Below, in pieces: positions 7,779 through 39,900 of a stretch of DNA of 64,000 nucleotides (within the stretch, counting starts at the first letter, position 1; each line of letters opens with the position of its first letter). The translations under genes were made by a program, and so were the position numbers. The stretch lies in assembly GCA_963803925.1 (NCBI GenBank), contig CAWDOM010000011.1, positions 49,949-113,948 on the forward strand, given 5' to 3'. Below the pieces are notes generated by a model, which saw nothing but the letters and a program-made list of their open reading frames with translations, ran no database searches and had not been told where the DNA came from. The stretch is from an uncultured Actinomycetota bacterium (lineage in GTDB: Bacteria > Actinomycetota > Thermoleophilia > RBG-16-64-13).

Positions 7779-7830
7779 TTGACATTCGGCCTGGCCTACG
7801 ATAGGCTGACTGAACATCGTATACGAAGTC
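7779..7830 (+). promoter_or_regulatory. Sigma70-like promoter TTGACA-17-TAGGCT, followed 9 nt later by TCGTATACGAAGTC. Putative autoregulatory MarR operator.
   Basis: Read directly. The 14-mer is identical to 4270..4283 and sits at the same distance from the -10 element. Confidence 0.6.
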
Positions 7831-7926
7831 GTATCCGTTTGTATATGCGACTGCCTGCGCGGCGGGCGTTCGACGAAGACAAGAACGCTGGCGGAGGCGC
7901 GAAATTGTTCCAGATCGGGGAGTGAG

Positions 7927-9623: not shown

Positions 9624-9652
9624 GGAATCGGACGAGAATCAGGAGAAGAGGT

Positions 9653-10846
9653 ATGAGCAAGGAAAAGCGTCTGATCGCCTACGTGGGGCGCAATCACGTC
9701 GACAAGTTCGAGGGCGGGGGCATCTCGGTCTTCGAAGTGAGCAAGGACGGCAGCAGCATCACTCCCCTCGCCGGTGGCGTGGAGGAGATGCCGAAAAGGG
9801 CGGGGTATCTCACGTACGCGGCAAAGGCCCACGTCCTCTACTCGGTCGACGAGCGGAAGACCGATGGACGTGGACCCAAGAAGCCGGCTTCATGCGTGAT
9901 GTCGTTCAAGGTGGATCCGCAGTCCGGAAAGCTGACCTTTCTGAACCAGCAACCCACCGTGGGAGCGATGCCGGCTTCCATCATCGTGGACGAGGAGAAG
10001 AAACTCCTCTTCACCGCGAACCACGGCTTCTTCGATCATGTGGTGAAGGCGGTCGAGATCGCCGCCGGCAAATGGGTGGAGAAGTTCGAGTACGACGATT
10101 CGACGGTCGTGCAGTACGGCATCGAAGCCGACGGTTCAATCGGTGAAGTCCAAGACGTGCATGTACTCGCCGGATACGGCACCGACCCGAACGATTCTCC
10201 CCAGGGCGGGGGGCACGCCCAGGCCAGCCCTCACGCGCACATAGTCGTGATCGACCCGACGGGCACATTCCTGGTGGTGTGCGAGAAGGCAGGGGAGCGG
10301 ATCTACGTCTACCGCATCGGAGGAAGGAGACTGCAGCTCGCCTCCGTCTACCAATGCCCGGCGGGGACCGGTCCTCGGCATGCTGCCTTCGATCTGAACA
10401 CAGGCCGCATGTTCATGACCTGTGAGTTCTCTTCTGAGCTGTGGTCGTTCGATTTCGACGCGACCAGCGGTGTCCTGACGTTCGTCGACAAGCAATCGAC
10501 GCTTTCCGGCTTCACGGGACGCAACGAGACGGCCACCCTGCAGGTGCATCCGAACGGCCGCTTCGTGTATATGAACAACCGGGGACAAGACGACGTCGTC
10601 TGGTACGGCATCTCCGAGGATGGTCATCTGACGAAGGCCGGACGGGTCGAACTCAGCAAGTCTGGCGATCCGAAAGACGCGACCCGCTGCATGACGCTCT
10701 CGCCCGACGGCGCGTTCCTGCTCGTCCCGGACCGCCCGGCGGATGTGATCCGGTCGTATGCGGTCGATGCGAATGATGGAAGCCTGAAGGTTCTGGCCGA
10801 AGTCCCCGTAGAGAACCCGGTATTCATCCAGTTCGTCGAGCTCTAA
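9653..10846 (+). CDS. Seven-bladed beta-propeller lactonase-like protein (6-phosphogluconolactonase/Pgl-type family)
   Basis: AGGAG RBS before the ATG at 9653. Repeated blade-like segments (YSVDE..., LFTANHG..., FLVVCEKAGERIYVYRI, GPRHAAFD, HPNGRFVYMNNRG, LSPDGAFLLVPDR). Confidence 0.7.
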   Translation: MSKEKRLIAYVGRNHVDKFEGGGISVFEVSKDGSSITPLAGGVEEMPKRAGYLTYAAKAHVLYSVDERKTDGRGPKKPASCVMSFKVDPQSGKLTFLNQQPTVGAMPASIIVDEEKKLLFTANHGFFDHVVKAVEIAAGKWVEKFEYDDSTVVQYGIEADGSIGEVQDVHVLAGYGTDPNDSPQGGGHAQASPHAHIVVIDPTGTFLVVCEKAGERIYVYRIGGRRLQLASVYQCPAGTGPRHAAFDLNTGRMFMTCEFSSELWSFDFDATSGVLTFVDKQSTLSGFTGRNETATLQVHPNGRFVYMNNRGQDDVVWYGISEDGHLTKAGRVELSKSGDPKDATRCMTLSPDGAFLLVPDRPADVIRSYAVDANDGSLKVLAEVPVENPVFIQFVEL

Positions 10847-10863
10847 CCGGCCTGGCGAGTGTG

Positions 10864-10902
10864 CTTCCGGCCCCCTAGGGGGCTCCCCCCGGGGGCCGGA
10901 AG
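10864..10902 (+). terminator. GC-rich hairpin with a 12-bp stem (CTTCCGGCCCCC / GGGGGCCGGAAG) after the lactonase-like gene. No clear U-tract.
   Basis: Inverted repeat read directly, 18 nt downstream of the stop at 10846. Confidence 0.5.
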
Positions 10903-11000
10903 CAGAAGAACCTCACCGGTACGATTCAGGTCCACCCCTCCGCCTGGTTGCTGAGATCGAGTCGGAGAAGCTGCCCACAAAGAAGATCGAGGTAGGTACT

Positions 11001-11111
11001 ATGCCGTGTCTCAACAAGGCCTGCGTGCCGCATGACGACGAGGCCATGGAGATCATTGAACAGGCTGTAGCCGACAACCGGCGCACCGTGCATGACGTGG
11101 GCGCGCGATGA
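11001..11111 (+). CDS. Candidate 36-aa small ORF (MPCLNKACVPHDDEAMEIIEQAVADNRRTVHDVGAR) translationally coupled to the first transhydroxylase-like gene
   Basis: GAGGT RBS 7 nt upstream of the ATG at 11001. Its TGA overlaps the ATG of the next gene (ATGA at 11108..11111). It is below the length cut-off of the ORF track. Confidence 0.35.
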   Translation: MPCLNKACVPHDDEAMEIIEQAVADNRRTVHDVGAR

Positions 11112-13648: not shown

Positions 13649-16184
13649 ATGGCAGAGCAAGAATTCATCAACTGCGGCATCGGGGCCATGCTGAAGGTCA
13701 CCGTCAACGACGGCGTGATCACCCGCATGCGCCCGCTTCGCCTGACCGAAGAAGACGGAGGTCGCTGGACTATCGAAGCCAAGGGCAAGAAGTTCTCCGA
13801 CCCGCGAAAGACTACGATCAACCCGTTCAACATAGCCGAGCGTATGCGGGTCTATGCCGACAACCGCATCAAGTACCCCATGAAGCGAAAGAACTTCGAT
13901 CCCGACGGCGAGCGGCACCCCGAACTGCGGGGCAAGGACGAGTACGTGCGCATCTCCTGGGAAGAGGCCTACGACATCTATGTCAAAGAGATCACACGCG
14001 TGCGCGAGGCCTACGGGCCGGCCGCGGTGACGGCCTTCGTTTCGTCCCATCACAACTACGGCCTGCTCTACTACAAGATGGGCCCCATGCCCCGCTTCTT
14101 CAACATCCTGGGTTATACGCAGCTGCTGGACAACCCCGATTCGTGGGAGGGCTGGCACTGGGGCAGCATGCATACCTGGGGTTGGTACTGGCGCTTCGGC
14201 CAGTGCGACAACTTCGACATGCTGTCGGAGGCCATGAAGAACACCGAACAGGTGATCTACTGGTCGGTCGATCCGAACACCTCAGCCGGCGGCTATGGCG
14301 GCCAGGAGACCGTGATTTGGAGGGAATGGCTCCGGGAGCTGGGCATCACAGGCATCTTCATCGACCCGTACTGTAACGCTACCTCGGCGCACATGGCCGA
14401 CAAGTGGCTGGCTCCCCGGCCGGGCACCGACGCCGCCCTGGCTCAGGCCATCGCATACCAGTGGATCGTCGACGATACCTACGACCACTGGTTCGTCGAG
14501 AACCGCACCGTCCACTTCGACGAGTGGAAGGCCTACATCATGGGCGAGACCGATGGGGTGCCCAAGTCCGCCGACTGGGCGGCTCCCATCTGCGACATCC
14601 GCGCGCATACCATCCGGGCGGTCGCCCGGCAGTGGGCCTCTAAGAAGAGCATGCTGGCCTGCGGTTCGCAGTATGGAACAGCGGGGGCCTGCCGTAACTC
14701 GTACGCCACCGAATGGGCCAGCCTCATGATCCACCTCATAGCCATGCAGGGCATCGGCAAGGAGGGCGTGAACATCTGGGGCGGCACCGCGCACGGCGCT
14801 CCCCTCGACATGAGCTTCAAGAGCGCCGGTTACTCCGACGTGGGCTGGGACGTCTTCGGTCTCGTCGCCAAACAGGCGACCTTCCCCGATCGCAACACCG
14901 TCACCCAGAAGGTGTACCGCATCTCTCTGCCGGAGGCCATTCTCGATGGCCACATCGAGTGGCTGGGCGAGGGCTTCTGCGTGCAGTACCCGACCCAGCA
15001 GTTCAAGCCCATGCAGTACCCCGAGCCAGGCCCGAACGGCGCCGAGATCAGAATGATCCACCGCCACGGCGGCTCCTTCATCTCCACCATGACCGACACC
15101 AGCAAGTGGGTGCGCATGTACCAGTCGCCCAAGCTGGAGTTCGTTGTCATGCAGGACTGCCACTGGCAGAGCGAGACCAAGTTCGGCGACCTCATCTTCC
15201 CGGCGTCGACGAACTTCGAGCACCAGGACATCTCGGAGTGGGCCCAGCCCGGCGGATACGGCAACGGCAACGTCAACTGCAACCACCGCATCTTGATGTT
15301 CCAGCAGAAATGCATCGAGCCCCTGTGGGAATCGAAGCCCGACTACCAGATCTACTGCGAGCTGGCCGAGCGTCTCGGCTTTCTCGAGGAGTACACCGAG
15401 GGCAACTCCGAAGAGGATTGGATCAAGAAGGTCTTCGCCTACACCGACCTGCCCAAGTACGTCTCGTACGAGGATTTCAAGAAGAAGGGCTACTTCGTGG
15501 TGCCGGCGCTGCCCGAGGACTACAAGCCCACCGTATCGAATCGTTGGTACTACGAGGGCCGGCCCGTCGACACCCCCGACCGCTTCAATCCCCTAGCGGG
15601 AACCGACAAGGCCACCGAGATGGCCACCCCGAGCGGCAAGATCGAGTTCGTTCGCGACCGTCTCAAGGAGTTCTTTCCCGACGATGAAGAGCGCCCGCCC
15701 ATGCCGCGCTACATCCCGCTCTACGAAGGCCACGAGACCACCGGCCTCGTGGACAAGTACCCCCTGATCCTGATGACGCCGCACACGAAGTACTCCTATC
15801 ACACCCATCAGGACAACAAGATCCTGTGGCTCAACGACATACGGCAGCATCGCATTGTGAAAGACGGCTACCCGTACTGGCCGATGCGCCTGAACCCGGC
15901 CGACGCCGAGGCGCGGGGCATCAAGGATGGCGACATCGTCATGGTCTACAACGACCGAGCCAGAGTACTCGGCGTGGCCTTGGTGACCGAACGCTGCCGT
16001 CCAGGAATGGTGCACTCGTACCAGGCGGCTGCCAAGTACGATCCGCTTCAGCCGGGCGTTCCTCGAGTCGATCGACCGGGGCGGGTGCGTGAACCTGCTG
16101 TCGCATTCGCGCATGACCAGCAAGAACGCCTACGGCGAAGCCAACATGTCGTTTCTCGTAGAAGTCCGCAAGTGGGAGGCATAG
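13649..16184 (+). CDS. Transhydroxylase-like molybdopterin large subunit, paralog 2. One frame break near 16060..16068 displaces the last ~40 codons.
   Basis: Collinear with paralog 1 through ...VHSYQAAAKYDPLQPGV. The conserved tail SIDRGGCVNLLSHSRMTSKNAYGEANMSFLVEVRKWEA then continues in the +1 frame to the TAG at 16182..16184, whereas the uncorrected ORF runs to 16210. Confidence 0.8.
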
Positions 16185-16188
16185 TCAA

Positions 16189-17019
16189 GTGGCCAGATAT
16201 GGAATGGTGATCGACGTCAAGAAGTGCGTGGGGTGCTACAACTGCTTCCTCACCTGCCGCGATGAATACGCCGGCAACGAGTATCCCGGCTATTCCGCCG
16301 CCCAGCCCATGAGCGGCATGAACTGGACCAAACTGCTCGAGATCGAGCGGGGTCAGTACCCTCATGTCAAGGTCGCCTACGTGCCGGTTCAGTGCAACCA
16401 CTGCGACGCCCCCTCGTGCCTGAAGCTCGACCAGACCGGGGCCATCTACCGGCGGTCCGACGGCATCGTCGTGATCGACCCGCAGAAGGCCAAGGGCAAC
16501 AAGGAGTTGGCCGGTCTCTGCCCCTACCGTCAGATCGAGTGGAACGAGGAGGCGCAGGTCGCGGCGAAATGCACCATGTGCGCTCATCTTCTCGATGCGG
16601 GTGAGCCGGAACCGCGGTGCGTGGAATCGTGCCCGAGCGGGGCGCGGATATTCGGCGATCTGGACGACCCGAGCAGCGAGGTGGCGAAACGTGTCGCGGC
16701 GGGTGCGAATGAGGTCTTCCATCCCGAGTACGCGCTCAAAGAGAAGCTCACCTATCTGAATATCCCGAGGAAGTTCGTGGCGGGCACGGTCGTTCTCGGC
16801 GACGTGGATGAAGTGGCTGTCGGCGCCGACGTGTCTCTGGCCGCCGGCGGCGAGACCCTCACCACCAAGACCAACGGCTTCGGCGACTTCGAGTTCGAGG
16901 GTCTGGCCGACAACGCGAAGTACACGGTCACCGTCACGGCTCCCGGCTACAAGATCGCGAGCTGCGAGACCAAGACCTCCAAGGACGTGTACCTGGGCGA
17001 GATCGTTCTCACCAAGTAG
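16189..17019 (+). CDS. Transhydroxylase-like small (beta) subunit: a 3x[4Fe-4S] ferredoxin domain plus a C-terminal Ig-like/carboxypeptidase-regulatory-like domain
   Basis: Cys motifs CVGCYNCFLTC, CNHCDAPSC and CTMCAHLL...CVESCP. The C-terminal beta-sandwich-like segment is TTKTNGFGDFEFEGLADNAKYTVTVTAPGYK. GTG start preceded by GGGAGG. Confidence 0.85.
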   Translation: MARYGMVIDVKKCVGCYNCFLTCRDEYAGNEYPGYSAAQPMSGMNWTKLLEIERGQYPHVKVAYVPVQCNHCDAPSCLKLDQTGAIYRRSDGIVVIDPQKAKGNKELAGLCPYRQIEWNEEAQVAAKCTMCAHLLDAGEPEPRCVESCPSGARIFGDLDDPSSEVAKRVAAGANEVFHPEYALKEKLTYLNIPRKFVAGTVVLGDVDEVAVGADVSLAAGGETLTTKTNGFGDFEFEGLADNAKYTVTVTAPGYKIASCETKTSKDVYLGEIVLTK

Positions 17020-17058
17020 GCTGGAGCTACACCTTTCGAGCGACGAAGCGAGTGTGAC

Positions 17059-18534
17059 ATGGCCGGAATAGCCTCCTACGGAGCGTACATACCGTTCTAC
17101 AGACTGAGCCGGGCCGAGATCGCCCGGGCCTGGGGTGGCGGCGGAACGGCCGGAGAACGGGCTGTCGCCAACTACGACGAAGACAGTCTCACCATGGCTG
17201 TAGCCGCCGCTCGGGATTGTCTCGCGGGTATCGATCGCGCTTGCGTGCAGGGGCTCGATTTTGCCTCCACGACCGCCCCTTACAAGGAGAAGCAGAGCGC
17301 AGCCCTCATCGCCGCGGTCCTGGGACTGCCGCCGGGAACAGTCACCATGGACTTCTCCGGGTCCCTGCGGAGCGGTACGAACGCCCTGAAAGCGGCGTTG
17401 GACGCGGTGATGAGCGGCTCTGCGAAAGGCGTCCTGGTGTGTGCTGCGGACACCCGTCTCGGCTATCCTGCGGGGCAGGCCGAGATGAGCTTCGGCGACG
17501 GCGCCGCGGCGTTGCTCGTCAGCGCGAGCGACACCGTCGCCGAAGTGACGCGTTTCGAAAGCACGTACCACGAGATCCAGGACGTGTGGCGCTCCGACCG
17601 CGACACGTTCGTCCGCTCGGCCGAGGAGCGCTTCTCCATGGACGAGGGCTACGTCCGCGTGATGACCTCGGCTCTGTCGGCGACCCTCAAGAAGCACCAG
17701 CTCGCGGAAACCGACATCGCACACGTCGCGATCAACGCACCCAACCTCCGTCAACTGAAGGCCGTCGCCAAGAAGGTAGGCGTCGACGACAAGTGCCGGC
17801 ACCTCGAGGCCATGCACGCCGGAGTCGGCGACACCGGTTGCGCTCAGAGCCTCATGGGGCTGGTCGGCGCTTTGGAACAGGCGTCCCCGGGCGACACGAT
17901 CCTCTTGGGAAGCTACGGCAACGGCTGCGACACGGCTGTGCTCGAGACCACAGAGCTGATAGCTGGGCTCAGCGACCGGAGGGGCATCAAAGGGCATCTC
18001 GCCTCAAAGACCAGCCTGCCCAACTACAACCAGTACCTGCGCTTTCGCGATCTCATCATCACGCAGCCGCCGGCCCGCCCGGCTCTCGAGATACGCATGC
18101 CCTCGCCCGCGGCCCAGTGGCGCGAGGCGCCGTGGGAGCTGCGTCTGACCGGCACGAGGTGCACGCGCTGCGGCACGCCGCAGTATCCGCCGCAACGGGT
18201 GTGCGTGCAGTGCCAAGCCAAAGACGAGATGGAGCCCTACAGCTTCCAGGATGTACCAGCCAAGGTGTTCTCGTTCTCGCACGACTATGTCATGGAGACC
18301 ATCGATCCGCCCGTGACGGTTGTGTTCGTCGATTTCGAGGGCGGCGGCCGCGTCATGTGCGACATGACCGACCGCGACCCGGCCGCGATCGAGGTCGGGC
18401 AGCCGCTCGAGTTCACCTTCAGGCGGCTCTACTACGTCGGGGGCATCTACAACTACTGGTGGAAGTGCCGGCCCCCGCGAACGGCGGACGCGCCAGACGG
18501 CCCGTCCGCACCTGGGGAGGCGAGCCGTGGATAG
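17059..18534 (+). CDS. HMG-CoA-synthase-like condensing enzyme fused to a C-terminal DUF35 (Zn-ribbon plus OB-fold) domain
   Basis: The N-terminus GIASYGAYIPFYRLSRAEIARAWG...NYDEDSLTMAVAAARDCL is archaeal-type HMGCS-like. The C-terminus CTRCGTPQYPPQRVCVQCQ...VTVVFVDFEGGGRVMCDMTD is DUF35-like. Confidence 0.75.
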   Translation: MAGIASYGAYIPFYRLSRAEIARAWGGGGTAGERAVANYDEDSLTMAVAAARDCLAGIDRACVQGLDFASTTAPYKEKQSAALIAAVLGLPPGTVTMDFSGSLRSGTNALKAALDAVMSGSAKGVLVCAADTRLGYPAGQAEMSFGDGAAALLVSASDTVAEVTRFESTYHEIQDVWRSDRDTFVRSAEERFSMDEGYVRVMTSALSATLKKHQLAETDIAHVAINAPNLRQLKAVAKKVGVDDKCRHLEAMHAGVGDTGCAQSLMGLVGALEQASPGDTILLGSYGNGCDTAVLETTELIAGLSDRRGIKGHLASKTSLPNYNQYLRFRDLIITQPPARPALEIRMPSPAAQWREAPWELRLTGTRCTRCGTPQYPPQRVCVQCQAKDEMEPYSFQDVPAKVFSFSHDYVMETIDPPVTVVFVDFEGGGRVMCDMTDRDPAAIEVGQPLEFTFRRLYYVGGIYNYWWKCRPPRTADAPDGPSAPGEASRG

Positions 18535-19711
18535 CATCAAAGACAGAGTCGCCATCGTGGGCATGGGCTGCGTGAAGTTCGGCGAGAACTGGAGCAAGAG
18601 CCTCGAGGACATGATCATCGACGCGGCCTTCGAGGCCTTCGACGACGCGGGCATAGGGCCCAAGGACATTCAGGCCGCCTGGTGGGGCAGCGTGTTCGCC
18701 GGCGAGTCGAGTTCGATCATGGCCCATCCGCTCAAGCTCGCCTACATCCCGGCGACACACGTGGAGAACCAGTGCGCCACGGGGTCGGAGGCCATCCGCG
18801 GCGCCGCCTACGCGGTCGCGGCCGGCATCTACGACGTCGTCCTCGCCGTTGGGGCGGAGAAGCTGAAAGACACAGGCTACTCGGGCCTGCCGCAGACCCG
18901 TCCGGTCGCCACCTGGAGCTACCGCATCACCACTCAGACCCCGGCAGCCGGCTTCGCCATGATGGCGACCGGCTACTTCGCCAAGTACGGTCTGACCTTC
19001 GACGAGGGTAAGAGGCTCCTAGGCGCGATCGCCGTCAAGAACCACCACAACGGTTCGCTCAATCCCAAGGCTCACTTCCAGCGGGAGATCACCTTGGAGC
19101 AGGCCATAGGGGCACCCATGATCGCCTACCCCCTCGGTCTCTACGACTGCTGTGGCGTGAGCGACGGCGCCGCGGCCGCCATCATCTGCCGGGCCGACCT
19201 AGCCAAGAAGTTCCGGCCCGATCCCATCTATATCAAGGCCGCGACTATCTGTCAGGGCGCGCGTGAAGGCTGGCTGAGCCAGTCGTACGACCTGGCGCAC
19301 GTGGAGGAGACCTACCGCGGTGGCGTGGCCGCCTACGCTGAGGCCGGCATCAAAGACCCGCGCAAGGAAATCAGCGTCGCAGAGGTGCACGACTGCTTCT
19401 CGATCACCGAGTTGACCATCATGGAAGACCTGCAGTTCAGTCCTCGCGGGAGAGTACGCGACGATATCGAGGCCGGGACCTTCACGCTCGAGGGTGAGCT
19501 ACCCGTCAACACCGACGGCGGACTGAAGTGCTTCGGCCACCCGATCGGGGCGACAGGACTGCGCATGCTCTACGAGGTCTACAAGCAACTTCAGGGCAAG
19601 GCCGGCGAGCGCCAGGTCAAGAACCCGCGGCTCGGATTGACGCACAACCAAGGCGGAGAACCGGGCTCGGCCACGGTGAGCGTGTTGATCGCCGGCAACG
19701 AACTGGGGTAG
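18527..19711 (+). CDS. Thiolase (SCP-x / archaeal acetoacetyl-CoA thiolase type)
   Basis: VAIVGMGCVKFGE...NQCATGSEAIRGAAYAVAAG...NTDGGLKCFGHPIGATGLRMLYE. The GTG start overlaps the upstream gene by 8 nt. Confidence 0.85.
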   Translation: MDSIKDRVAIVGMGCVKFGENWSKSLEDMIIDAAFEAFDDAGIGPKDIQAAWWGSVFAGESSSIMAHPLKLAYIPATHVENQCATGSEAIRGAAYAVAAGIYDVVLAVGAEKLKDTGYSGLPQTRPVATWSYRITTQTPAAGFAMMATGYFAKYGLTFDEGKRLLGAIAVKNHHNGSLNPKAHFQREITLEQAIGAPMIAYPLGLYDCCGVSDGAAAAIICRADLAKKFRPDPIYIKAATICQGAREGWLSQSYDLAHVEETYRGGVAAYAEAGIKDPRKEISVAEVHDCFSITELTIMEDLQFSPRGRVRDDIEAGTFTLEGELPVNTDGGLKCFGHPIGATGLRMLYEVYKQLQGKAGERQVKNPRLGLTHNQGGEPGSATVSVLIAGNELG

Positions 19712-19808: not shown

Positions 19809-21302
19809 CTAGACGTTCACCTTGACGGGCGCGGGCTTCTGCCCGGCATGCCGGAGTTCGCTCGACCTGATGCTGAGTACGGCGGCGATCGAGACCACGG
19901 CCATCGCTCCCGTGATCAGAGCCGACCACGTGAAAGTCACATCGGCAGGAAAGAACTGGGTCTCGATACCCTTCGGCGTCGTCACTTCGACGGCCACGAG
20001 TCGCAGCGTGAGCATGTAGCCGACCACCGCCGCGGCCACCGAGCAGCCGATGCCGGCGGCGCAGTTGTAGACGGTGCCGAGGACTACGCCCTTCCCGGGC
20101 TCCACGGCCTCGGCGGCTACCGCGTAGCTGGCTGAGCCGGCAAAGGAGGCGGGCACTCCGTTGAGCGCCAGCCACAGCACGATGAGCCACAACGAGCCGT
20201 GCGCGAACGCCATCCCGAAGCCGCCCAGACTGAAGAGCATGCCGAGAAGCATCGTCCCCTTGGGCCCAAGCCTCCGCATGACCGACGAGGCGGTGGGCGA
20301 GACCAGAGACATCACCACCGCGGGTACGGCGAGCGCTAGGGAGACCACGAAGATGCTCTTGCCGAAGCCGAACCCCGACGACGTGGGGGTCTGCAGCAGG
20401 TACGGCAAGAACGACGCCGGGATTATGAATCCCAGCGCTATGGTCAACCAGACCACCACTCCCTGCCACGCTCCCGTCCGCTTGAGCAGCCGCAGGTCGA
20501 TAAGCGGACGGCTCGAGCGCAGCTCCCACAGCACCCAGCCGGCGAGTAACGCCACGCCAGGTAGAAGCATGCCGAGCAGCTTGCCGCTGTTCCACCCCCA
20601 GGAGTTGGCCTGACTTAGCGGCACGAGTATCAACACGGTCCAGGCGACAAGCCCCACGCAGCCGGCATAGTCGATCCGCACGCCCTTGGCGCGCGGCGTC
20701 TCCTTGATGAAACCGAAGGTCAAGATCAGGTCGAGCGCCGCGGCCGCGGTCAAGATCCAGAACAGAGTGCGCCAATCGCCTCCCGTGCGCCAGATCAGGC
20801 CGCTCAGCAGGTAGGCGAGTACGGCGCCCAATCCCATGGCGAGAACGATCATGCTCATGGCCCGGCGCATGGCCTCTCCCCGCCAGAAGTTGGCGACGAT
20901 GCCGATGGAGAGTGCCTGGATGGCCATGGAGACCCCTTGGATCACCCGTCCGGTGATGAGCATGGAGAGGTTGGTGGCGAGGGCCGCGATGACGCTGCCC
21001 ACGAGCAGGAGGCTGAGCGCGACTCCCAACATCCGCCGGTTGCCAACGACGGCGCCCAGCGCCGCGGCCACCCCGCCTGCCCCCGCGGCTATCACATGAA
21101 AGCCGGCCATGGTCCAGACGACCTGGTTGATCGGACGGCCGAATTCCTGCGAAAGCGACAGCATCTGCGGAAATAGGCAGACGCTCGCGATGTTGACGAG
21201 GATCGTGGCGAGCATCAGGGTGCCCACTACCAGCCAGCCGCTGCGGCCGAGCGTAGTCCTTGCTTCCAAGACGGCGGCGGACGCCCTCTGCGGGTCTGTC
21301 AC
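19809..21302 (-). CDS. MFS transporter, 14-TMS DHA2/EmrB-like
   Basis: 497-aa polytopic protein. The GTG start overlaps the stop of the upstream glycyl-radical enzyme gene (GTGA). Confidence 0.8.
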   Translation of the reverse strand: MTDPQRASAAVLEARTTLGRSGWLVVGTLMLATILVNIASVCLFPQMLSLSQEFGRPINQVVWTMAGFHVIAAGAGGVAAALGAVVGNRRMLGVALSLLLVGSVIAALATNLSMLITGRVIQGVSMAIQALSIGIVANFWRGEAMRRAMSMIVLAMGLGAVLAYLLSGLIWRTGGDWRTLFWILTAAAALDLILTFGFIKETPRAKGVRIDYAGCVGLVAWTVLILVPLSQANSWGWNSGKLLGMLLPGVALLAGWVLWELRSSRPLIDLRLLKRTGAWQGVVVWLTIALGFIIPASFLPYLLQTPTSSGFGFGKSIFVVSLALAVPAVVMSLVSPTASSVMRRLGPKGTMLLGMLFSLGGFGMAFAHGSLWLIVLWLALNGVPASFAGSASYAVAAEAVEPGKGVVLGTVYNCAAGIGCSVAAAVVGYMLTLRLVAVEVTTPKGIETQFFPADVTFTWSALITGAMAVVSIAAVLSIRSSELRHAGQKPAPVKVNV

Positions 21303-23719
21303 GCCAGCTCTAGTTCGGTGCGTCTGATCACGTCATCCTGCATGTCTTTGTGGAGTTCGACGAAGTAGGAGCTGAAGCCTGCGATGCGCACCACCAGGTC
21401 CTTGTGCTCTTCGGGGTGGAGTTGGGCCAGTTTGAGCGTCTCGGCGTCGGTGATGTTGAACTGCAGCTCCATGCCGTCGAGGTCGAAGTAGGTCTGGATG
21501 AGCGAGACGAGCTTCTCCTTGCCTCCGCCCTCCAGCGCCTTGGGATGGAACTTCATGTTGAGAAGCGTGCCGTTGGCGTTGTGCCGGTGGTCGATGCGCA
21601 GGGCCGACTTGAGAGTCGAGATGGGGCCGTTGGTGTCGAGGCACTGGATGGGGGATATGCCGTCCGACAGCGGGTCACCCGTGTGCCGCCCGTCAGGCGT
21701 CGCCCAAGTCAGCTTGCCCCACAGCACGTGGGTGGCGACGGGGTAGAGCCCGGCGTTCCAGTTGTTGCCGCGCGGCCCGACGCAGGAGCGCACCTTGTCG
21801 GCGATCACCTTCGAGAGCCATTCAGCGATCTCGTCCGGATATTCGAGGTCGTTGCCGTAGTGCGGCACCTCCGAGATGAGGCGGCGGCGCAGGTGTTCCT
21901 GGTCCTGCCAGTTGGTCATGACCGCGTCGTAGAGCTCCCGGGCAGTGCACAGCTTCTGGTCGAACACCGCGTACTTGATAGTGGCAAGGCTGTCGACCAC
22001 CGTGCCGATGCCGACGCCCGCGAAGCCCGTGCCGTTGAACCGTGCTCCGCCCCACATGACGTCCTTGCCGCTCTCGAGGCAACCGTCGACGGTCGCCGAC
22101 ACGATCGGTAGAGGCATGTGGTAGCGGGCGACGATCTCGCGGACGCCGGTGAAGGCGACCTGCCAGTCGATGAAGTGCTCGATCTGCTGCTTGAGGGCTT
22201 CGCGCACCTCGTCGAAGCTCCCCATATCGTAGAGGTAGCCGGTGGCGAGCCCTGTGCGGCGCATAGGGGCGCCGCCCCAGTCGGGCATGGGATTGGCGCC
22301 GTCGTTGATGGCGAGGAGCAGAGCGCTGGGAATGCGCCAGAACGACTCCTGGCCCGGGCCTCCGCAGGCCGGCCAGTCGTCGCCGCAGCCGCCGGGCTCC
22401 ACACAGCCGATGAGGCAGTAGTTGCGGGCCGATTCCAGCGACATCCCCCGGTCGACGAGCGCCGGGATGATCACCTTGTCGCTCTCGAAGGTCGGCACCC
22501 CGCCGTTGACCCGGGTCGACTCGATAGCGATATCCCACAGCTTGTCGGGGGTGCCCTCGTGGATGCGGAGTGACATGGGCGGATCGTGCAGCTTGAGGCG
22601 TCGCGAGGCCTCGAGCAGCATGTAGCTGACCTCGTTGGTGGCGTCGGCCCCGTCTTTGCCGATTCCGCCAATGGTGATGAGTTGGCCCGAGGTGTAGCCG
22701 CTGGCCGACTGGGTGGCGACGCTCGACCAGACCTTGTTCATCTCGGCCACCTTGAGGCAGAAGAGGTCGACGATCTCCTGCGCGCGCTCGCGCGTGATTC
22801 GCCCGGCCGCGAGGTCCGCCTCGTAGAAGCTCCCGAGATACTGGTCTACGCGGCCGAAGCTGAGGCCGTGCAGGTTGCCGTCGTGCGAGAGGCCGATCTG
22901 GTAGAGGAACATGGCCTGCACGGCTTCGACGAACGTGCGCGCCGGGTTCTCCATGATCCAGTCAAGTCCCGCGGCCATGCCTGATAACTCGGCGCGACGG
23001 ACGTCGTCGTCGCACTCCTCGGCTTGGCGGCGGCACTCAGCCGCGTAGCGCTTCGCGAGGACGATCATGGCGTCGCACACGATGGTGACCGCGCGGTAGA
23101 ACTGCTCCTTTTCGGCGTCGTTGCCGTACAGCCTGCCCTTCATGGCGTCGAGCTTGGCCTGCGCCTCGCGCTTGATAGCCCCGAATCCCTTGCGGATGGC
23201 CTTGTCGTAGTTGGCGCAGAAGTGGCCCACCGGGCCGCCGGCGACCTCCTTGTCGCGAAAGGTGACCACACCGTTGCCGACGATGTCGGAGAACTCGGGT
23301 GGCAAGGCGTCGGTGGTCAGGCGGCTCAAGTCGTTCGTCCGCCAGAACTCCTCCTGCCGCATGAAGTAGTCGACGTCCTCCTGGTCGATATCGTACGGAT
23401 CGAGGGGGCGGTCGAAGAACAGGCCGCTCTTGATCTCGTCCCACATCCAACCGACCGAGTACTCGGGGTAGAGCGCCGTAGCGCGATACGACGAGCCCAA
23501 CTCACCCACGATGACCTCGTCGTCGTTTACGAGAAACGGGATGTTCTCGCAGATGTTGAGCAGGCTCTTCGCCCGCTTGATCATCGGCGGCATGGCCGGA
23601 TTGGCCTTGTAGAACTCGGTGACCAGTCTGAACCGCTCCATGCAGACCTTGGGCTTGGTCTCGCGGTACCGGTGGCGGATGCGGGCCACCCGCGGGCTGA
23701 TGGGGGAGAACTCATACAT
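21299..23719 (-). CDS. Glycyl radical enzyme (PFL2/glycerol-dehydratase-like clade), paralog 2
   Basis: 806 aa starting at MYEFSPISPRVARIRHRYRETKP with a GAGGAGGA RBS. Catalytic Cys loop LIGCVEPGGCG and glycyl radical motif VVRIAGFSSYFVEL. The longer 1228-aa ORF call is an out-of-frame run-on into the upstream gene. Confidence 0.9.
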   Translation of the reverse strand: MYEFSPISPRVARIRHRYRETKPKVCMERFRLVTEFYKANPAMPPMIKRAKSLLNICENIPFLVNDDEVIVGELGSSYRATALYPEYSVGWMWDEIKSGLFFDRPLDPYDIDQEDVDYFMRQEEFWRTNDLSRLTTDALPPEFSDIVGNGVVTFRDKEVAGGPVGHFCANYDKAIRKGFGAIKREAQAKLDAMKGRLYGNDAEKEQFYRAVTIVCDAMIVLAKRYAAECRRQAEECDDDVRRAELSGMAAGLDWIMENPARTFVEAVQAMFLYQIGLSHDGNLHGLSFGRVDQYLGSFYEADLAAGRITRERAQEIVDLFCLKVAEMNKVWSSVATQSASGYTSGQLITIGGIGKDGADATNEVSYMLLEASRRLKLHDPPMSLRIHEGTPDKLWDIAIESTRVNGGVPTFESDKVIIPALVDRGMSLESARNYCLIGCVEPGGCGDDWPACGGPGQESFWRIPSALLLAINDGANPMPDWGGAPMRRTGLATGYLYDMGSFDEVREALKQQIEHFIDWQVAFTGVREIVARYHMPLPIVSATVDGCLESGKDVMWGGARFNGTGFAGVGIGTVVDSLATIKYAVFDQKLCTARELYDAVMTNWQDQEHLRRRLISEVPHYGNDLEYPDEIAEWLSKVIADKVRSCVGPRGNNWNAGLYPVATHVLWGKLTWATPDGRHTGDPLSDGISPIQCLDTNGPISTLKSALRIDHRHNANGTLLNMKFHPKALEGGGKEKLVSLIQTYFDLDGMELQFNITDAETLKLAQLHPEEHKDLVVRIAGFSSYFVELHKDMQDDVIRRTELELA

Positions 23720-23763
23720 CGTGGGACTATCCTCCTCGGGTTCCGGGAGCGGGTCTGGACCTG

Positions 23764-26202
23764 CTAGAACTGGTTCTCGGTGCGGCTGATGATGTCGTTC
23801 TGCATGCGCTCGCTGAGTTCGACGAAGTAGGCCGAGTAGCCCGCGATGCGTACGACCAGGTTGCGATAAGCAGCGGGGTCTTTCTGCGCGGCCCGCATGT
23901 CGTCGGCGCTGACCACGTTGTACTGCACCTCCAGGCCGCCCTGCTCGAAGTAGGCCTTGGTGATGTCGCGCAACTTGGCCGAGCTCTGCTCGCCACGCAA
24001 CGCGGTCGGGTGGATCTTGAGGTTGACCGCGATGCCATCGAGGAAGTGGCTGTGGTCGAAACAGCACTCCGAGGCGAAGACCCCGGTGGGGCCGCGGAGG
24101 TCGCGGCCCTGGGCCGGCGACGCCGCGTCGGCCAGCGGCTCCCCGGTCTTGCGCCCGTCGGGCGTCGCCCAGGTGTGGGCTCCTTGGGCCACGTGGTCGG
24201 CGGCGCCGTATAGACCGGCCTTGTAGATGTCGCTCCGCTCGCCCGTCATCTGGCAGCAGGTGTCGTAGTAGAGGTCGCAGATCCAGGTCATCTGCTCGTC
24301 GGCGTACGGGTCGCCGTTGCCGAAGTGGGGCACTTCGCTCAGAATCCTCTGCCGCAGCGGCTCGTGTCCCTCCCAGTCGCACATGTAGGCGTCGTACAGC
24401 TCCCGGGCGGTGCAGAGCTTCTTGTCGAAGACCATGTACCTGATGGTGGTGAGCGAGTCGGCGACCGTGGCGAGGCCGGTAGCCGTACCGCCGAACGAGT
24501 TGTACGTGGCTCCGCCCCGCACGCAGTCGCGGCCCGATTCCATGCAGCCTTCGATAGAGATTGAGAGTGCCGGGTGGGGAGCGACGATCATGGCCATGTA
24601 CTCGCCGTAGTTGTTCATGCTCACCAGCCAGCGCATGAAGTGCTCTACCTGGATCTTGACGGCGGCCTTGACCTCGTCGAACGACTCCATGTCGTAGAGA
24701 TGCCCGGTCTTCAGAGTGCTGCTGTGGCCGTTCACCGGGTTGACGCCGTCGTTCAGCGCCAGCGTGAGGATCACCCCGTAGTGGATGGTGGCTTTGCAGT
24801 TCGATCCGTTCGGCGCGGGGTAATCGTTGCCCGAGCCGACGATCTCCTGGCAGCCGATCAGGCTGTAATCGCGGGCGTCGCGCAGCGAGAAGCCCCGTTT
24901 GACCAGCGCCGGCGCGATGACTTCGTCGTTCTGGAACAGTGGCAGACCGCCGACCAGCTTGGTCATCTCGATCGCCCGCGCCCACAGCTCATCGGGCGTG
25001 TTCTCGTGGATACGTATGGAGATCGTCGGATCGTGCAGCAGTAACCCGCCCATGGAGTCGAGCACCATGTAGGTCACGGGGTTCGTCGCGTCGTCCCCGG
25101 TCTCGGGGACGACGCCCCCGATGGTGGTGTGCTGGTAGGTGTTGCCCACGCCGACGATCTCGTTCAAGAAGGGCGGCGCCGCCCGGTAGAAGCAGTTGGC
25201 CTTGAGGAGAAAAGCATCGACGATCTCGTGCGCCTCGGCCAGGGTGAGACGTCCGGCCTCGAGGTCGGCCTCGAGGAAGGGCCATGTGTACTGGTCGAAG
25301 CGGCCGAAGGCCAGGGCCGGGTAGCGCGCGTCCATGTAGAGCAGTAGCTGGTACATGACGGTGGCCTGCACCGCTTCCCAGAAAGTGCGGGCCGGTTTCT
25401 CCGAGATCCAGTCGAGGCTTTCGGCCATGCGCTGCAACTCGGCTACTCGGACCGGGTCGTCACCCGTCGCGGCCTTCTCGCGGCAGGTCTGCGCGTAGCG
25501 CTTGATCATCGCCGTGGCGGCATCGCAGGCGAGCGTGGCGGCCTCGTAGAACAGGTACTTCTCGGTGTCGCCGCCCATGAGGTTTCCGTGGTGGGCGTCG
25601 ATCCAGCCGGCCGCCTGCTTGCGGATGGCCGCGTAGCCCACGTTGACGATCTTCGGGTAGCCGGCGGTGAGATGCCCACTGGGCAGGTCGCCGATGGGCA
25701 CGCCGGGGAAGAAGCTCGAGGCCCCGATCGCGCTCCATTCCTCGAAGCCGTCGGGATACCAGGCGTCCATGCAGGCCGAGACTGTGTTGCCCTTCCAGAA
25801 GTCGCGTATGGAGTAGAGCTTGTCCCTCTCCGCTTCGCTGATGGTCAGCCTGGTGCCCATGTCGTCGCGGTGGTAGAGCCCGTCGTCTCCACGCAGCCAC
25901 AGGCCGCCCCTGTCGAACTCCTCGTAGAACCAGGAGTTGCCGTACTCGGGCCACATGGCCGAGCCGAGGAAGCTGGTGCCGAAGTTGCCGACGATGAGCT
26001 CGAAGTCTTCGACGCGGCACGTCATCCGCGAGCAGACGTCGTACGTGGCACGCGCCCGCTTGATGTCGGGGGGCGCGAGGAGGTTTCTCCGGTACGATTC
26101 GGTGACGTTGACGGCGCGCTCGGCGTCGACCGCGATCACCCTGTCGCGGACGAGCTCCCTCATCTGGGCTATCCGGTCGGTCACGGGCCGGGGTTCAGGC
26201 AT
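23764..26202 (-). CDS. Glycyl radical enzyme (PFL2/glycerol-dehydratase-like clade), paralog 1
   Basis: 812 aa starting at MPEPRPVTDRIAQMRELV with a GGAGAGGGTGG RBS. Cys loop LIGCQEIVGSG and glycyl radical motif VVRIAGYSAYFVEL. Confidence 0.9.
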   Translation of the reverse strand: MPEPRPVTDRIAQMRELVRDRVIAVDAERAVNVTESYRRNLLAPPDIKRARATYDVCSRMTCRVEDFELIVGNFGTSFLGSAMWPEYGNSWFYEEFDRGGLWLRGDDGLYHRDDMGTRLTISEAERDKLYSIRDFWKGNTVSACMDAWYPDGFEEWSAIGASSFFPGVPIGDLPSGHLTAGYPKIVNVGYAAIRKQAAGWIDAHHGNLMGGDTEKYLFYEAATLACDAATAMIKRYAQTCREKAATGDDPVRVAELQRMAESLDWISEKPARTFWEAVQATVMYQLLLYMDARYPALAFGRFDQYTWPFLEADLEAGRLTLAEAHEIVDAFLLKANCFYRAAPPFLNEIVGVGNTYQHTTIGGVVPETGDDATNPVTYMVLDSMGGLLLHDPTISIRIHENTPDELWARAIEMTKLVGGLPLFQNDEVIAPALVKRGFSLRDARDYSLIGCQEIVGSGNDYPAPNGSNCKATIHYGVILTLALNDGVNPVNGHSSTLKTGHLYDMESFDEVKAAVKIQVEHFMRWLVSMNNYGEYMAMIVAPHPALSISIEGCMESGRDCVRGGATYNSFGGTATGLATVADSLTTIRYMVFDKKLCTARELYDAYMCDWEGHEPLRQRILSEVPHFGNGDPYADEQMTWICDLYYDTCCQMTGERSDIYKAGLYGAADHVAQGAHTWATPDGRKTGEPLADAASPAQGRDLRGPTGVFASECCFDHSHFLDGIAVNLKIHPTALRGEQSSAKLRDITKAYFEQGGLEVQYNVVSADDMRAAQKDPAAYRNLVVRIAGYSAYFVELSERMQNDIISRTENQF

Positions 26203-26351
26203 CGCGCCACCCTCTCCGCAGTCTCTCCGCTTCACTGAGATCCTCTCTAATGAACAAGAATCATTATGCCCCAGGAGCCATCGCGAATGTTGGCCTCTGC
26301 TCCCCTGGCTGTGAGACTCTTTGAGTACACCGCGCGAAGGGAGGAGACTCC

Positions 26352-27137
26352 GTGGCACAGATGGACTACGAGAACCGGCACAAGCTGAAGCCGCACGACT
26401 TCTCGGCGCTCGACGATTTCGACTTCAGGTACGCGCCGGTCGGCTTCAAGTTCTTCAACGTGGAGGGCGATCTGGAGGGACTCGGCCTCGCGCCGCTCGA
26501 GGGCAAGATGTCCTGGTGCAGCATGCTCCGCGAAGCGCAAGAGGGCCTGTCGTTCTACGCGGTCGCCGAGAACCACAGTTGCGAACCTGGCCTCTTCTTA
26601 CCCGGTCATCGTCCCGTTGATCCTTTGGCCGCCAGTGGGCGCATCGGCACGGCGTTCGACATCTTTCCCGACGAGCGCGCCAATCGCCGCATTTACAAGC
26701 ACCTGAGCTACCTGGCGGAGGGCTCTGTCTACGCGAGCGGTTTCGCCCCGGTCGCGAAACTCACCTTCGAGCCCGACCTCCTCATCGTCGCCTGCGACAC
26801 CATGGACCAGGGGGAGCGGTTACTGCGCGCTACCCAATGGGATACGGGCGACAGGATTCGCAGTGAGATGACCTACGTGATCGGCTGCAACTGGCTGTTC
26901 ACCTATCCCTACGTTTCCGGCGACATCAACACGGTATGGACGGGCATCTGCCACGGCATGACCGGCTACGATCTCTATCCGGCCGGCCTGCCCATCGTGA
27001 GCGTCCCTTGGAACCACTTCGATCGCGTGCTTCGCAACATCCGCGAGATGCCGCCCAAGCTTCCGGCGCATACCGCCGAGCGGGCGGAATCGCATCGCCG
27101 TGGCGAGCGGCGGCTGGGAGTGGAGGGGATCATCTGA
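26352..27137 (+). CDS. DUF169-family protein
   Basis: 261-aa ORF with a GTG start after GGGAGGAG. The pattern FRYAPVGFKFF...SWCSMLREAQEG...HSCEPG...GCNWLFTYPYVSG matches my memory of DUF169 (COG2043). It is divergent from the GRE operon. Confidence 0.6.
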   Translation: MAQMDYENRHKLKPHDFSALDDFDFRYAPVGFKFFNVEGDLEGLGLAPLEGKMSWCSMLREAQEGLSFYAVAENHSCEPGLFLPGHRPVDPLAASGRIGTAFDIFPDERANRRIYKHLSYLAEGSVYASGFAPVAKLTFEPDLLIVACDTMDQGERLLRATQWDTGDRIRSEMTYVIGCNWLFTYPYVSGDINTVWTGICHGMTGYDLYPAGLPIVSVPWNHFDRVLRNIREMPPKLPAHTAERAESHRRGERRLGVEGII

Positions 27138-30629: not shown

Positions 30630-31064
30630 TCAGAAGGCGCCGATCTGGCAGTTCTTGACCTTGAGGCCCATCGCTTCACAGGCGGCCGACACGCCCATCT
30701 TCTGAGTATCAAGGTCGCGGGCGATCTTCCAGCACGCGGCGCAGGTGATGCGGCCCTCGACGACGCTCTCTTCGATCCGCCGGCGTAGCTCGTCGGAGAC
30801 CTCCGCGGCTGGTCTGACGGTCCTCTTCTCGGGCGAGTACCCGAAGAGACCCATCTGGCACTCGATCACGCGGAATTCCAGCAGATCAGCGGTCGTGCCG
30901 ACCTCGGCAGGCGAGGCGCCCAACTCGTGAGCCACTTCGTGGGCGGCCGTGCAGGTAACCCGTCCGTCGTCCGCGATCTGTTTCAGCGCGGCGGCGACAC
31001 TGGGATCGGGCGGCGTGCCCGCGGGGTGTTTCGCGGCGTAGTGTCCGGCGTATTCATGGGGCAT
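30630..31064 (-). CDS. Hypothetical protein built from two tandem ~60-aa Cys-containing repeats
   Basis: GGAGG RBS before the ATG at 31064. Repeat 1 is GRVTCTAAHEVAHELGASPAEVGTTADLLEFRVIECQMGLFG; repeat 2 is GRITCAACWKIARDLDTQKMGVSAACEAMGLKVKNCQIGAF. Confidence 0.6.
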   Translation of the reverse strand: MPHEYAGHYAAKHPAGTPPDPSVAAALKQIADDGRVTCTAAHEVAHELGASPAEVGTTADLLEFRVIECQMGLFGYSPEKRTVRPAAEVSDELRRRIEESVVEGRITCAACWKIARDLDTQKMGVSAACEAMGLKVKNCQIGAF

Positions 31065-31214
31065 GACGGGCCTCCGGGTCACATGGTCATGGATCTCGGC
31101 AGGGTGCTCTCCAGTCGAACCCGAAGCATATATCATTGCGAGAAGGAAGGCCGGAATGGAGGCAGACACGGCCGCCGCGGCACCGCGCGGGCGCGCCTCA
31201 CAAGGAGGAACCAC

Positions 31215-31625
31215 ATGAACTACGTGGCCATCTGGTTCGCAGCGTTCTTCGGCATCAGCTTCATCGATGCGCTCTGGCACCTCGTGCTGTTCGGCTGGGC
31301 CTACCGCCCCGGTTTCAGGCTCGTCGCGCGCTCCCGCGACGGCAAGATGTCGCTTCAGCCCCTACCGGGACTCCTGTCGCAGATCTTGGTGGTCAGCGCG
31401 CTGGTGGTGCTCACCATCCTCAGCGTCAGGGCCGGACAGGGCTACCCCGTCAACTTCCTGGTCGGCGCTTTGGGAGGCGTACTCGCTATCAGCGTCTACG
31501 GACTCGTGAACCAGGCTCTCATCAAAGACTGGACTTGGAGACTGACCATGCTCGAGGTCGTCTGGGGGCCGATCATCGGCGGGGTCGGGTCGCTCTTCAT
31601 CGCCTGGATGTACCGAGTCATCTGA
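31215..31625 (+). CDS. Small integral membrane protein (possibly DUF2177-like)
   Basis: AAGGAGGAA RBS before the ATG at 31215. 136 aa with four hydrophobic helices (MNYVAIWFAAFFGISFIDALWHLVLFGW...). Confidence 0.6.
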   Translation: MNYVAIWFAAFFGISFIDALWHLVLFGWAYRPGFRLVARSRDGKMSLQPLPGLLSQILVVSALVVLTILSVRAGQGYPVNFLVGALGGVLAISVYGLVNQALIKDWTWRLTMLEVVWGPIIGGVGSLFIAWMYRVI

Positions 31626-37468: not shown

Positions 37469-37558
37469 GTAAGCGAGAAGCCCGGGTACTCCCGGGCTTC
37501 TCGCGCAACAAGACCATGTGGGCGGCCGGCTTCGCGGGCCGCCCCGTGAGAGGGTCTC

Positions 37559-39889: not shown

Positions 39890-39900
39890 GGCTGCCTCCT

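Follow-up and report, generated by a model that had tools for sequence, protein, structure and literature searches.

We analyzed a 64-kb stretch of DNA from an uncultured soil member of the Actinomycetota (GC content, 65%), hereafter the window, in which a compact gene cluster encodes two glycyl radical enzymes (GREs), GRE1 and GRE2, and a transporter of the major facilitator superfamily (MFS). Our preferred interpretation, to which we assign a probability of roughly 60%, is that this cluster is a catabolic operon of two uncharacterized GREs of the CXE class and a DHA2-like MFS transporter, in which the ancestral gene for the activating enzyme (AE, or activase) was deleted while the enzymes remain in use and are activated in trans. 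The evidence comes from the window itself and from its comparison with the GRE1-family loci, about 85 in total (individual loci carry L numbers). GRE1 (812 aa; positions 23764-26202) and GRE2 (806 aa; 21299-23719) lie in tandem on the minus strand, separated by a 44-nt spacer (23720-23763) that contains a GAGGAGG ribosome-binding site, and the MFS gene (19809-21302; 497 aa from a GTG codon) follows GRE2 on the same strand.

Class and active sites of GRE1 and GRE2

Over their full length, both proteins match the PFL-like domain PF02901 (E values of 7e-152 for GRE1 and 1e-177 for GRE2) and the Gly_radical domain PF01228 (4e-25 and 2e-28). An earlier sequence-only reading of this DNA, made by a model, had described two tandem GREs spaced by 44 nt, each with a glycyl radical loop and a cysteine loop, and translation and Pfam bear out all of these features. 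The conserved glycyl loop, R-[VI]-x-G-[FYW], is located near the C terminus (RIAG788Y in GRE1, starting at R785, 23836-23850 on the minus strand; RIAG781F in GRE2, starting at R778, 21374-21388 on the minus strand) and is kept across the two protein clades to which GRE1 and GRE2 belong. The two loops are near-identical, reading RIAG[Y/F]S[A/S]YFVEL. The cysteine loops, on the same strand, are G450-C451-Q452-E453 in GRE1 (24844-24855, checked by translation) and G438-C439-V440-E441 in GRE2 (22397-22408). According to a 2026 review (PMC13450708), a CXE motif with a variable X defines all characterized eliminases (C-O, C-N, and C-S) as well as newer isomerases, and its glutamate hydrogen-bonds the substrate hydroxyl. 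Both proteins contain this motif (C451-Q-E453 and C439-V-E441), by which they are assigned to the CXE (1,2-eliminase/isomerase) class.

The glutamine of GCQE had been regarded as unusual, a view that does not hold: the review gives the X position as variable (PMC13450708), and CQE is invariant across the family, being present in 73 of 76 GRE1-like proteins, with the remaining three explained as regular-expression artifacts on an earlier, noncatalytic site. The homologs of GRE1 (49 to 88% identical) share the loop signature GCQE[IV][TV]G[SC]G.D[YFW] and are distributed among Actinomycetota, Acidobacteriota, Dehalococcoidales, Desulfobacterota, acetogens, Paenibacillus, and rumen and gut Clostridia. 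Judged from these sequences, GCQE is the invariant signature of a large uncharacterized GRE clade and no oddity of one gene. GRE2-like proteins form a second clade, with the signature GCVEP...[DE]W; in a metagenome scan with GRE2, most matches belonged to other GRE clades (34 to 49% identity), and orthologs were limited to L092-L094, L100, L130, and L151. Rumen and gut Oscillospiraceae and Lachnospiraceae (L035, positions 5010-12448, L065, L077, L078, and L040) carry two to three tandem CQE-clade paralogs, 55 to 57% identical to GRE1, suggesting that this clade diversified over a family of related substrates.

GRE1 and GRE2 are 43% identical and are closer to each other than either is to any solved GRE, their best PDB matches being glycerol dehydratase 1R8W, CutC, and 9RCO (392 to 528 bits). 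Neither reaches the curated NCBIfam equivalog cutoffs (CutC, HypD, HpfG, HpsG, IAD, HPAD, and PFL); the best equivalog is HpfG for both, with 461 bits for GRE1 and 556 bits for GRE2 against cutoffs of ~1,000 to 1,150. The PFL2/glycerol dehydratase subfamily model TIGR01774 likewise gave scores (517 and 574 bits) below its cutoff of 678. With all NCBIfam equivalog scores under their cutoffs, neither protein is orthologous to a characterized GRE.

The closest points of comparison are the glycerol dehydratase of Clostridium butyricum (1R8W) and 1,2-propanediol dehydratase (5I2A), which share with both GREs the fold, the class, the G-C-x-E motif, a RVxG[FY]-type loop, and the equivalent of His164. 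The chemistry expected by analogy would be similar, with abstraction of the carbinol hydrogen, loss of the beta group, and formation of a carbonyl. GRE1 and GRE2 differ from these dehydratases in reaching only 432 to 523 bits by phmmer, in staying under the TIGR01774 cutoff, and in the glutamine after the cysteine of GRE1; moreover, unlike the dehydratases, the GRE operon has no microcompartment genes nearby. CutC, IslA/IseG, HpfG/HpsG, and HypD all belong to the PFL2-family CXE eliminases, whose activase has a ferredoxin domain, but GRE1 and GRE2 score about half of their curated cutoffs (1,000 to 1,100) and lack a sulfonate- or choline-pathway context. For YbiW/PflD and HpyG/HpzG, the matches are 302 to 405 bits; in PMC13450708, the YbiW/PflD isomerases and the HpyG/HpzG pairs provide a precedent both for paralogous GREs that act on stereoisomeric or related substrates and for radical C-O ether cleavage beta to a carbinol. 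At an identity of only 43% and with cysteine-loop signatures that differ, GRE1 and GRE2 are no simple stereo-variants of each other.

For the active site of glycerol dehydratase, we take the relevant set to be His164, His281, Ser282, Tyr339, Asp447, and Tyr640 (1R8W numbering). Alignment shows that the general acid His164 has equivalents in both proteins (His177 in GRE1 and His166 in GRE2), as does Tyr640. GRE2 additionally keeps the equivalents of His281 and Tyr339, has a glycine at position 282, and carries an insertion of 4 to 6 residues after the cysteine loop that leaves the counterpart of Asp447 ambiguous. In GRE1, Pro, Ala, and Gly occupy the positions of His281, Ser282, and Tyr339, so that only His164 and Tyr640 of the set are kept. 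From these alignments, GRE2 looks dehydratase-like with an altered pocket, and the active site of GRE1 looks more different within the same mechanistic frame.

The review PMC13450708 includes neither clade among the characterized GREs, and no description was present in the papers found by searching for GREs together with Acetobacterium, lignin or aryl ethers, polyphenols, O-demethylases, and phenylpropanoids. A tetrahydrodaidzein reductase reported as "glycyl radical" was set aside, as it appears irrelevant to both clades, a judgment made without sequence comparison.

Loss of the activase gene and probable activation in trans

Four tests agree with the sequence-only reading that no activase is encoded within the 64 kb. 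Within the window, CxxxCxxC occurs only once in a coding frame, as a ferredoxin-type site of a 2-oxoacid:ferredoxin oxidoreductase subunit; a tblastn search with an orthologous activase picked up Fe-S motifs and nothing else; a hidden Markov model (HMM) of 25 activases, run with filters off against all open stretches of at least 70 aa of the window, gave a best E value of 0.04; and Pfam scans of 30 open reading frames (ORFs) of the window detected no Radical_SAM domain.

Comparison with relatives offers an ordinary explanation for this gap. The closest relatives are uncultured Actinomycetota, and every relative that is 75 to 84% identical and has both sides of the junction readable places an activase between GRE1 and GRE2. 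This GRE1-AE-GRE2 order is seen in L001, L004, L005, L006, L011, L030, L086, L087, L088, L092, L093, and L094. In the sister lineages, the activase is a radical-SAM protein with a ferredoxin insert, encoded by a gene of ~1 kb whose start, where readable, often overlaps the GRE1 stop. L093 has, besides GRE1-AE-GRE2, an ortholog of the MFS transporter (76% identical) directly after GRE2, and we therefore reconstruct the ancestral operon, from gene order, as GRE1-activase-GRE2-MFS.

The activase-less junction occurs in four assemblies from different projects, namely, the window, L085 (NCBI GCA_021815245.1; 46-nt GRE1-GRE2 spacer), L089 (ENA ERZ25039462; 13 nt), and L090 (JGI 3300063139; ~200 nt). 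Synteny between L089 and the window starts with thrC and DUF169, extends to the end of MFS, and, after an insertion, resumes with the thiolase/DUF35 genes as far as the start of the Fe-S beta-subunit gene. This insertion, between MFS and the thiolase genes (L089 positions 14651-19372), adds a second MFS transporter, a polyferredoxin-like protein, and a two-component system, the last of which is absent from the window and could regulate the operon. In a neighbor-joining tree of GRE1, the window groups with L085 (100% bootstrap), and its sister is the activase-bearing P0004/L088 (96%). Together they lie nested within an actinobacterial clade (100%), and the activase is present on all its remaining branches, the basal one with L005 among them. 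The deletion is therefore derived, and tree and gene order together identify it as a clean, lineage-specific loss. Blastn and tblastn with five activase genes found no activase remnant above chance in the spacers of the window, L085, L089, and L090; a match of 9 out of 12 between the first spacer bases and the last activase codons was too weak to be used as one. The missing activase, which had been presented as a feature of the system, is thus better regarded as a lineage-specific deletion from a GRE1-activase-GRE2(-MFS) operon.

In each of the four activase-less assemblies, both GRE genes are intact and retain their catalytic motifs. The dN/dS ratios between the window and L089 are 0.106 for GRE1, 0.093 for GRE2, 0.178 for MFS, 0.085 for DUF169, and 0.153 for the housekeeping gene thrC; they were taken at dS of ~0.55 to 1.0 (~0.55 to 0.87 for GRE1, GRE2, and MFS) and average the whole divergence, so that a very recent loss of function is compatible with them. 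The GREs of activase-bearing relatives have equal ratios (0.095 to 0.10). These values indicate that GRE1 and GRE2 have been under strong purifying selection after the activase was lost, and the likeliest reading is therefore that both remain in use, with an activase encoded elsewhere acting on them in trans. Such cross-activation is reasonable because the glycyl loops of the two enzymes are near-identical and one activase serves both in the relatives, because an activase is absent within 10 kb in 19 of 38 GRE1-family loci with full flanks, and because the activase of PFL activates TdcE in E. coli (PMC13450708, section 2.5). TdcE, in relying on the activase of another GRE, is an analogue of GRE1 and GRE2, except that the glycyl loops of TdcE and GrcA are identical to that of PFL and the trans-acting activase for GRE1 and GRE2 is hypothetical. 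GrcA is also activated by PflA, which is encoded nonadjacently to the genes of TdcE and GrcA.

Two other explanations of the missing gene have to be weighed against activation in trans. An assembly artifact, i.e., a collapsed or mis-joined region, might be considered, as the window holds several probable indel errors; nevertheless, the same succession of GRE1 stop, short spacer, and GRE2 start in assemblies from different projects rules it out for practical purposes, and the spacers of these assemblies differ in length and their flanks have diverged. It is also conceivable that the operon is a decaying relic, in which GRE1 and GRE2 can no longer be activated and drift toward pseudogenes, in line with the lack of an activase in the window and with the frameshifts in several neighboring genes. 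We find this very improbable: both ORFs are intact over 4.9 kb, the Gly, Cys, and Glu residues are kept in all four activase-less assemblies, and dN/dS is 0.09 to 0.13 at dS of ~0.55 to 0.7, matching the activase-bearing relatives and lying under the value for thrC. Furthermore, the frameshifts elsewhere resemble long-read indel errors and spare the operon.

Activation in trans can be framed in the following mechanism. The data show that, in the ancestor, a single radical-SAM activase encoded in the GRE1-activase-GRE2-MFS operon served both enzymes and that its clean deletion in the window lineage brought GRE1 and GRE2 to within 13 to 200 nt of each other. A glycyl radical activase from elsewhere in the genome would now activate both in trans, the radical on Gly788 (GRE1) or Gly781 (GRE2) being relayed to Cys451 or Cys439. 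The resulting thiyl radical would take a hydrogen from the carbinol carbon of the substrate, Glu453 or Glu441 would deprotonate the hydroxyl, the ketyl radical would expel a beta leaving group (OH, OR, or similar), and return of the hydrogen would yield an aldehyde or ketone. Most likely, GRE1 and GRE2 each handle one of a pair of related substrates, or consecutive intermediates, and do not form an obligate complex.

GRE1-GRE2 pairing and the DUF169 neighbor

Genes of the GRE1 and GRE2 clades are neighbors in about 18 of 79 species-level loci, in an order that varies with the taxon: GRE1-AE-GRE2 in Actinomycetota, GRE1-GRE2-AE in Paenibacillus puldeungensis, GRE1-FeADH-GRE2-AE in Acetobacterium (with a gene for an Fe-type alcohol dehydrogenase, Fe-ADH, between both GREs), and GRE2-AE-GRE1 in Lachnospiraceae. 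Sporomusa acidovorans has two separate AE-GRE units, ~7 kb apart on opposite strands. In this organism (L002, CP155571.1, positions 613-3029), the GRE2-like gene is present as a 756-aa protein and a separate 54-aa Gly_radical fragment, a split that is possibly a frameshift just before the glycyl radical loop. This recurrent pairing across phyla supports a functional link between GRE1 and GRE2. Most GRE1 homologs are solitary or lie beside further GRE1 paralogs.

The gene divergent from GRE1 (26352-27137, plus strand) encodes a 261-aa protein of the DUF169 family (PF02596; 88 bits against a cutoff of 27, profile positions 7-208 of 209), and the threonine synthase gene thrC lies downstream on the same strand. 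The divergent DUF169 gene of the sequence-only reading is thus confirmed. A scan of the 149-nt GRE1/DUF169 intergenic region (26203-26351) for a sigma-70-type consensus found none, such a consensus being uninformative for an actinobacterium with 65% GC. An initial view of DUF169 as a chance neighbor (tblastn E value of 1e-8, none in 82 loci) was withdrawn after clustering, Pfam, and an HMM scan, which found divergent DUF169 genes in eight further loci, namely, L030, L033 (two), L050, L053, L060, L063, L064 (two), and L068. Including the window, L085, and L089, the last two with the same divergent arrangement, DUF169 is present in about 12 of ~85 loci, which represent at least five architectures; three loci from Lachnospiraceae have it immediately upstream on the same strand (DUF169-GRE-AE). 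The co-occurrence of DUF169 with this GRE clade, which had been put forward as a check, is therefore borne out in part. A 76%-identical ortholog is located in a locus that has no GRE. For a small family, the recurrence looks like more than chance, judged without a measured background rate.

The AlphaFold model of the DUF169 protein is confident (pLDDT, 93), and neither a PDB sequence match nor a Foldseek neighbor of the model was found (best E value of 0.12, TM score of 0.19); the papers that mention DUF169 contained no functional information. Across 50 homologs, the invariant residues include Cys56, Cys77, Cys179, Arg109, Asn111, Arg112, and Arg113 (window numbering), and the family shares an R-x-N-R-R motif. 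The three invariant cysteines, in a fold without a solved relative, suggest a metal or cluster site.

These data bear on two further proposals, one for the enzyme pair and one for DUF169. The sequence-only reading had raised the possibility that GRE1 and GRE2 form an obligate hetero-oligomer, in which one subunit is catalytic and the other structural or regulatory, or in which active sites are shared. The tight linkage of the genes, their recurrent pairing in Actinomycetota, Bacillota (Paenibacillus, Acetobacterium, and Lachnospiraceae), and Negativicutes, and the single activase for both in relatives would fit such a complex. We nevertheless judge it unlikely: ~60 of the 79 GRE1-family loci, i.e., about three-quarters of the homologs, have no GRE2-like gene within 10 kb, S. 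acidovorans gives each GRE its own activase, and neither protein, each with a full catalytic set, resembles a degenerate subunit. In addition, characterized PFL-like GREs dimerize through a conserved homodimer interface (outline of PMC13450708, section 4.4). Because most GRE1 homologs have no GRE2 nearby and both catalytic sets are complete, two related or successive reactions are, from the sequences, most likely.

It might be supposed, in turn, that DUF169 replaces or assists the missing activase, be it as a new route to the glycyl radical, a repair factor, or a chaperone, given that it is a conserved divergent neighbor in the activase-less clade (window, L085, and L089), that it recurs among the GRE1-family loci in several architectures, and that it combines invariant cysteines with a confident fold of its own. 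The odds of this are, in our view, very slight. DUF169 is found beside a canonical activase in L050, L053, L060, L063, and L068, and in the same locus as one in L064; because of this co-occurrence, we conclude that DUF169 is no activase substitute. The protein has neither a CxxxCxxC motif nor a radical-SAM domain, one ortholog lies in a locus that has no GRE, and in the metagenome-assembled genome RBG_16_64_13 the DUF169 ortholog is on a different contig from GRE1-AE-GRE2. Both the window and L089 also have thrC next to DUF169, on the same strand. In L050, L053, and L064, it is located among corrinoid methyltransferase genes, between URO-D genes in L050 and L053 and, in L064, in a locus that also encodes a corrinoid protein and a pterin-binding methyltransferase, which suggests a link to the corrinoid methyltransferase module instead.

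Genomic context and candidate substrates

The MFS transporter following GRE2 has ~14 hydrophobic segments in a hydropathy scan, in agreement with the sequence-only reading, and scores 97.7 bits with the DHA2 model TIGR00711 (cutoff, 230). Orthologs that are 74 to 84% identical follow GRE2 in L089, L090, L093, and L151. Regarding the translational coupling described for this gene, the GRE2 stop TGA does overlap the GTG that opens the MFS frame (GTGA), but the start itself is uncertain, as orthologous MFS genes begin 10 to 150 nt after GRE2. In the proposal that the GREs act on an imported compound, import is an assumption, as the MFS protein belongs to a subfamily that is mostly of the efflux type.

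Substrate clues come from the neighbors of GRE1-family genes in other taxa. In Paenibacillus, the pair is preceded by genes for an Fe-ADH, an aldehyde dehydrogenase, a phosphotransacylase, an acetate-kinase-like protein, two MFS proteins, and a PucR-type regulator. The combination of Fe-ADH, aldehyde dehydrogenase, phosphotransacylase, and kinase is the classical toolkit to disproportionate an aldehyde product, and these neighbors suggest that the GREs yield a carbonyl compound. Over all loci, the commonest neighbor is the activase (23 loci), followed by OYE/2,4-dienoyl-CoA-reductase-type ene-reductases (14 loci), two subgroups of URO-D-family methyltransferase-like proteins (12 and 11 loci), short-chain dehydrogenases (10 loci), Opp-type ABC transporters (10 loci), and corrinoid proteins, pterin-binding methyltransferases, and aldehyde:ferredoxin oxidoreductases (4 loci each). 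At least one corrinoid methyltransferase component of the O-demethylase type is present in 21 loci. Several carriers (Acetobacterium, Sporomusa, Sporobacter termitidis, Alkalibaculum, Alkalibacter, Desulfatiglans, and Syntrophorhabdales) have been described as degraders of methoxylated or other aromatic compounds.

In the window, the operon adjoins two tandem homologs of the pyrogallol hydroxytransferase large subunit with an Fe-S subunit, and then HMG-CoA-synthase-like/DUF35 and thiolase-like genes. Altogether, the transhydroxylase-type genes (11105-13645, 13649-16210, and 16189-17019; 50917-54365; 124-720) comprise three full-length homologs of the pyrogallol-phloroglucinol transhydroxylase large subunit (the first with 846 bits and an E value of 2e-253 to PDB 4V4C), two Fe-S beta subunits with a CarboxypepD_reg domain, and the C-terminal end of a fourth large subunit at the window start, a set that is unusually rich for one 64-kb stretch. 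The same molybdenum enzyme family is found beside GRE1-AE-GRE2 in L005. Thiolase-like and DUF35/OB-fold sets are located at 17059-19711 and 45037-47107; the first, fused to an HMG-CoA-synthase-like domain, resembles the archaeal-type thiolase/HMGCS/DUF35 complex. This first set, for which L089 shows synteny, occupies the stretch directly between the GRE operon and the transhydroxylase genes and may act on a product of ring cleavage, e.g., a beta-diketo acid. Taken with the neighbors in other taxa, this context suggests a class of substrates only, namely, hydroxylated or methoxylated compounds of plant origin, e.g., side chains from polyphenols or lignin, or else diols and polyols.

Other features of the window can be recorded here. 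A beta-keto acid cleavage enzyme (BKACE, PF05853; 769-1404) is encoded near the transhydroxylase genes, and triacetate acetoacetate-lyase of the anaerobic phloroglucinol pathway is presumably a BKACE member. An NrpR-type regulator (PF01995 NRD1_2 and HTH_12; 42551-43708), of a family best known from archaeal nitrogen regulation, lies beside NuoE/NuoF-like genes (39182-42349). Four ORFs with coding-type GC3 (8415-9623, 30630-31361, 35282-37558 [758 aa], and 60765-61499) have no Pfam match at an E value of 1e-5 or below, and the first has no NCBIfam match. Three-frame reading revealed frameshifts at ~1355, ~2130, ~2600, ~16070, and ~60355 within otherwise conserved genes (BKACE, ADP-forming acyl-CoA synthetase [at least two], the C terminus of the second transhydroxylase large subunit, and acyl-CoA dehydrogenase). 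They are either long-read indel errors or true pseudogenes, probably the former; the GRE1-GRE2-MFS-DUF169 block is free of them.

Besides the averaging inherent in the dN/dS ratios, several points weigh against the trans-activated catabolic operon that we favor. No activase was located for the organism, in a search that covered 64 kb of a 384-kb contig. The replacement of the His281, Ser282, and Tyr339 equivalents means that the chemistry of GRE1 may differ from a simple diol dehydration. The DHA2-like MFS subfamily is mostly known for efflux, and the transporter could serve either substrate uptake or the removal of a toxic product. The neighborhood clues differ across taxa and are not specific to any one substrate, and the literature searched held no biochemical data on members of either clade.

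A more specific and distinctly speculative proposal, which we hold to be improbable, is that GRE1 and GRE2, DUF169, the corrinoid O-demethylase-type methyltransferases, and the OYE-type ene-reductases together constitute an undescribed anaerobic pathway acting on lignin or polyphenol side chains. Such a pathway may, for example, include C-O cleavage beta to a benzylic or aliphatic carbinol (arylglycerol, beta-aryl-ether, or plant diols), followed by reduction of the enone or aldehyde. If true, it would parallel the aerobic Lig pathway without requiring oxygen, and the activase-less lineage would also offer a natural test case for the cross-activation of GREs by a noncognate activase.

GREs perform chemistry that is otherwise closed to anaerobes, and each newly assigned GRE clade has so far opened a new pathway, as for choline, hydroxyproline, sulfonates, and anhydro-sugars. 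Our analysis defines two large uncharacterized clades, with the signatures GCQE[IV]xGxGxD[YFW] and GCVEP...[DE]W, in soil Actinomycetota and Acidobacteriota, acetogens, and rumen and gut Clostridia. They are linked to each other and to demethylase, ene-reductase, and aldehyde-processing genes and to the unstudied DUF169. Cultured carriers, such as Sporomusa acidovorans, Acetobacterium species, Paenibacillus puldeungensis, Alkalibaculum, Alkalibacter, and Sporobacter termitidis, would make their function testable. The deletion of the activase under continued selection is a natural experiment on the specificity between activases and their partners, a subject barely studied according to PMC13450708. 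The missing activase itself has an ordinary evolutionary explanation, and the interest of this system lies in its paired clades, its DUF169 companion, and its plant-aromatic context.

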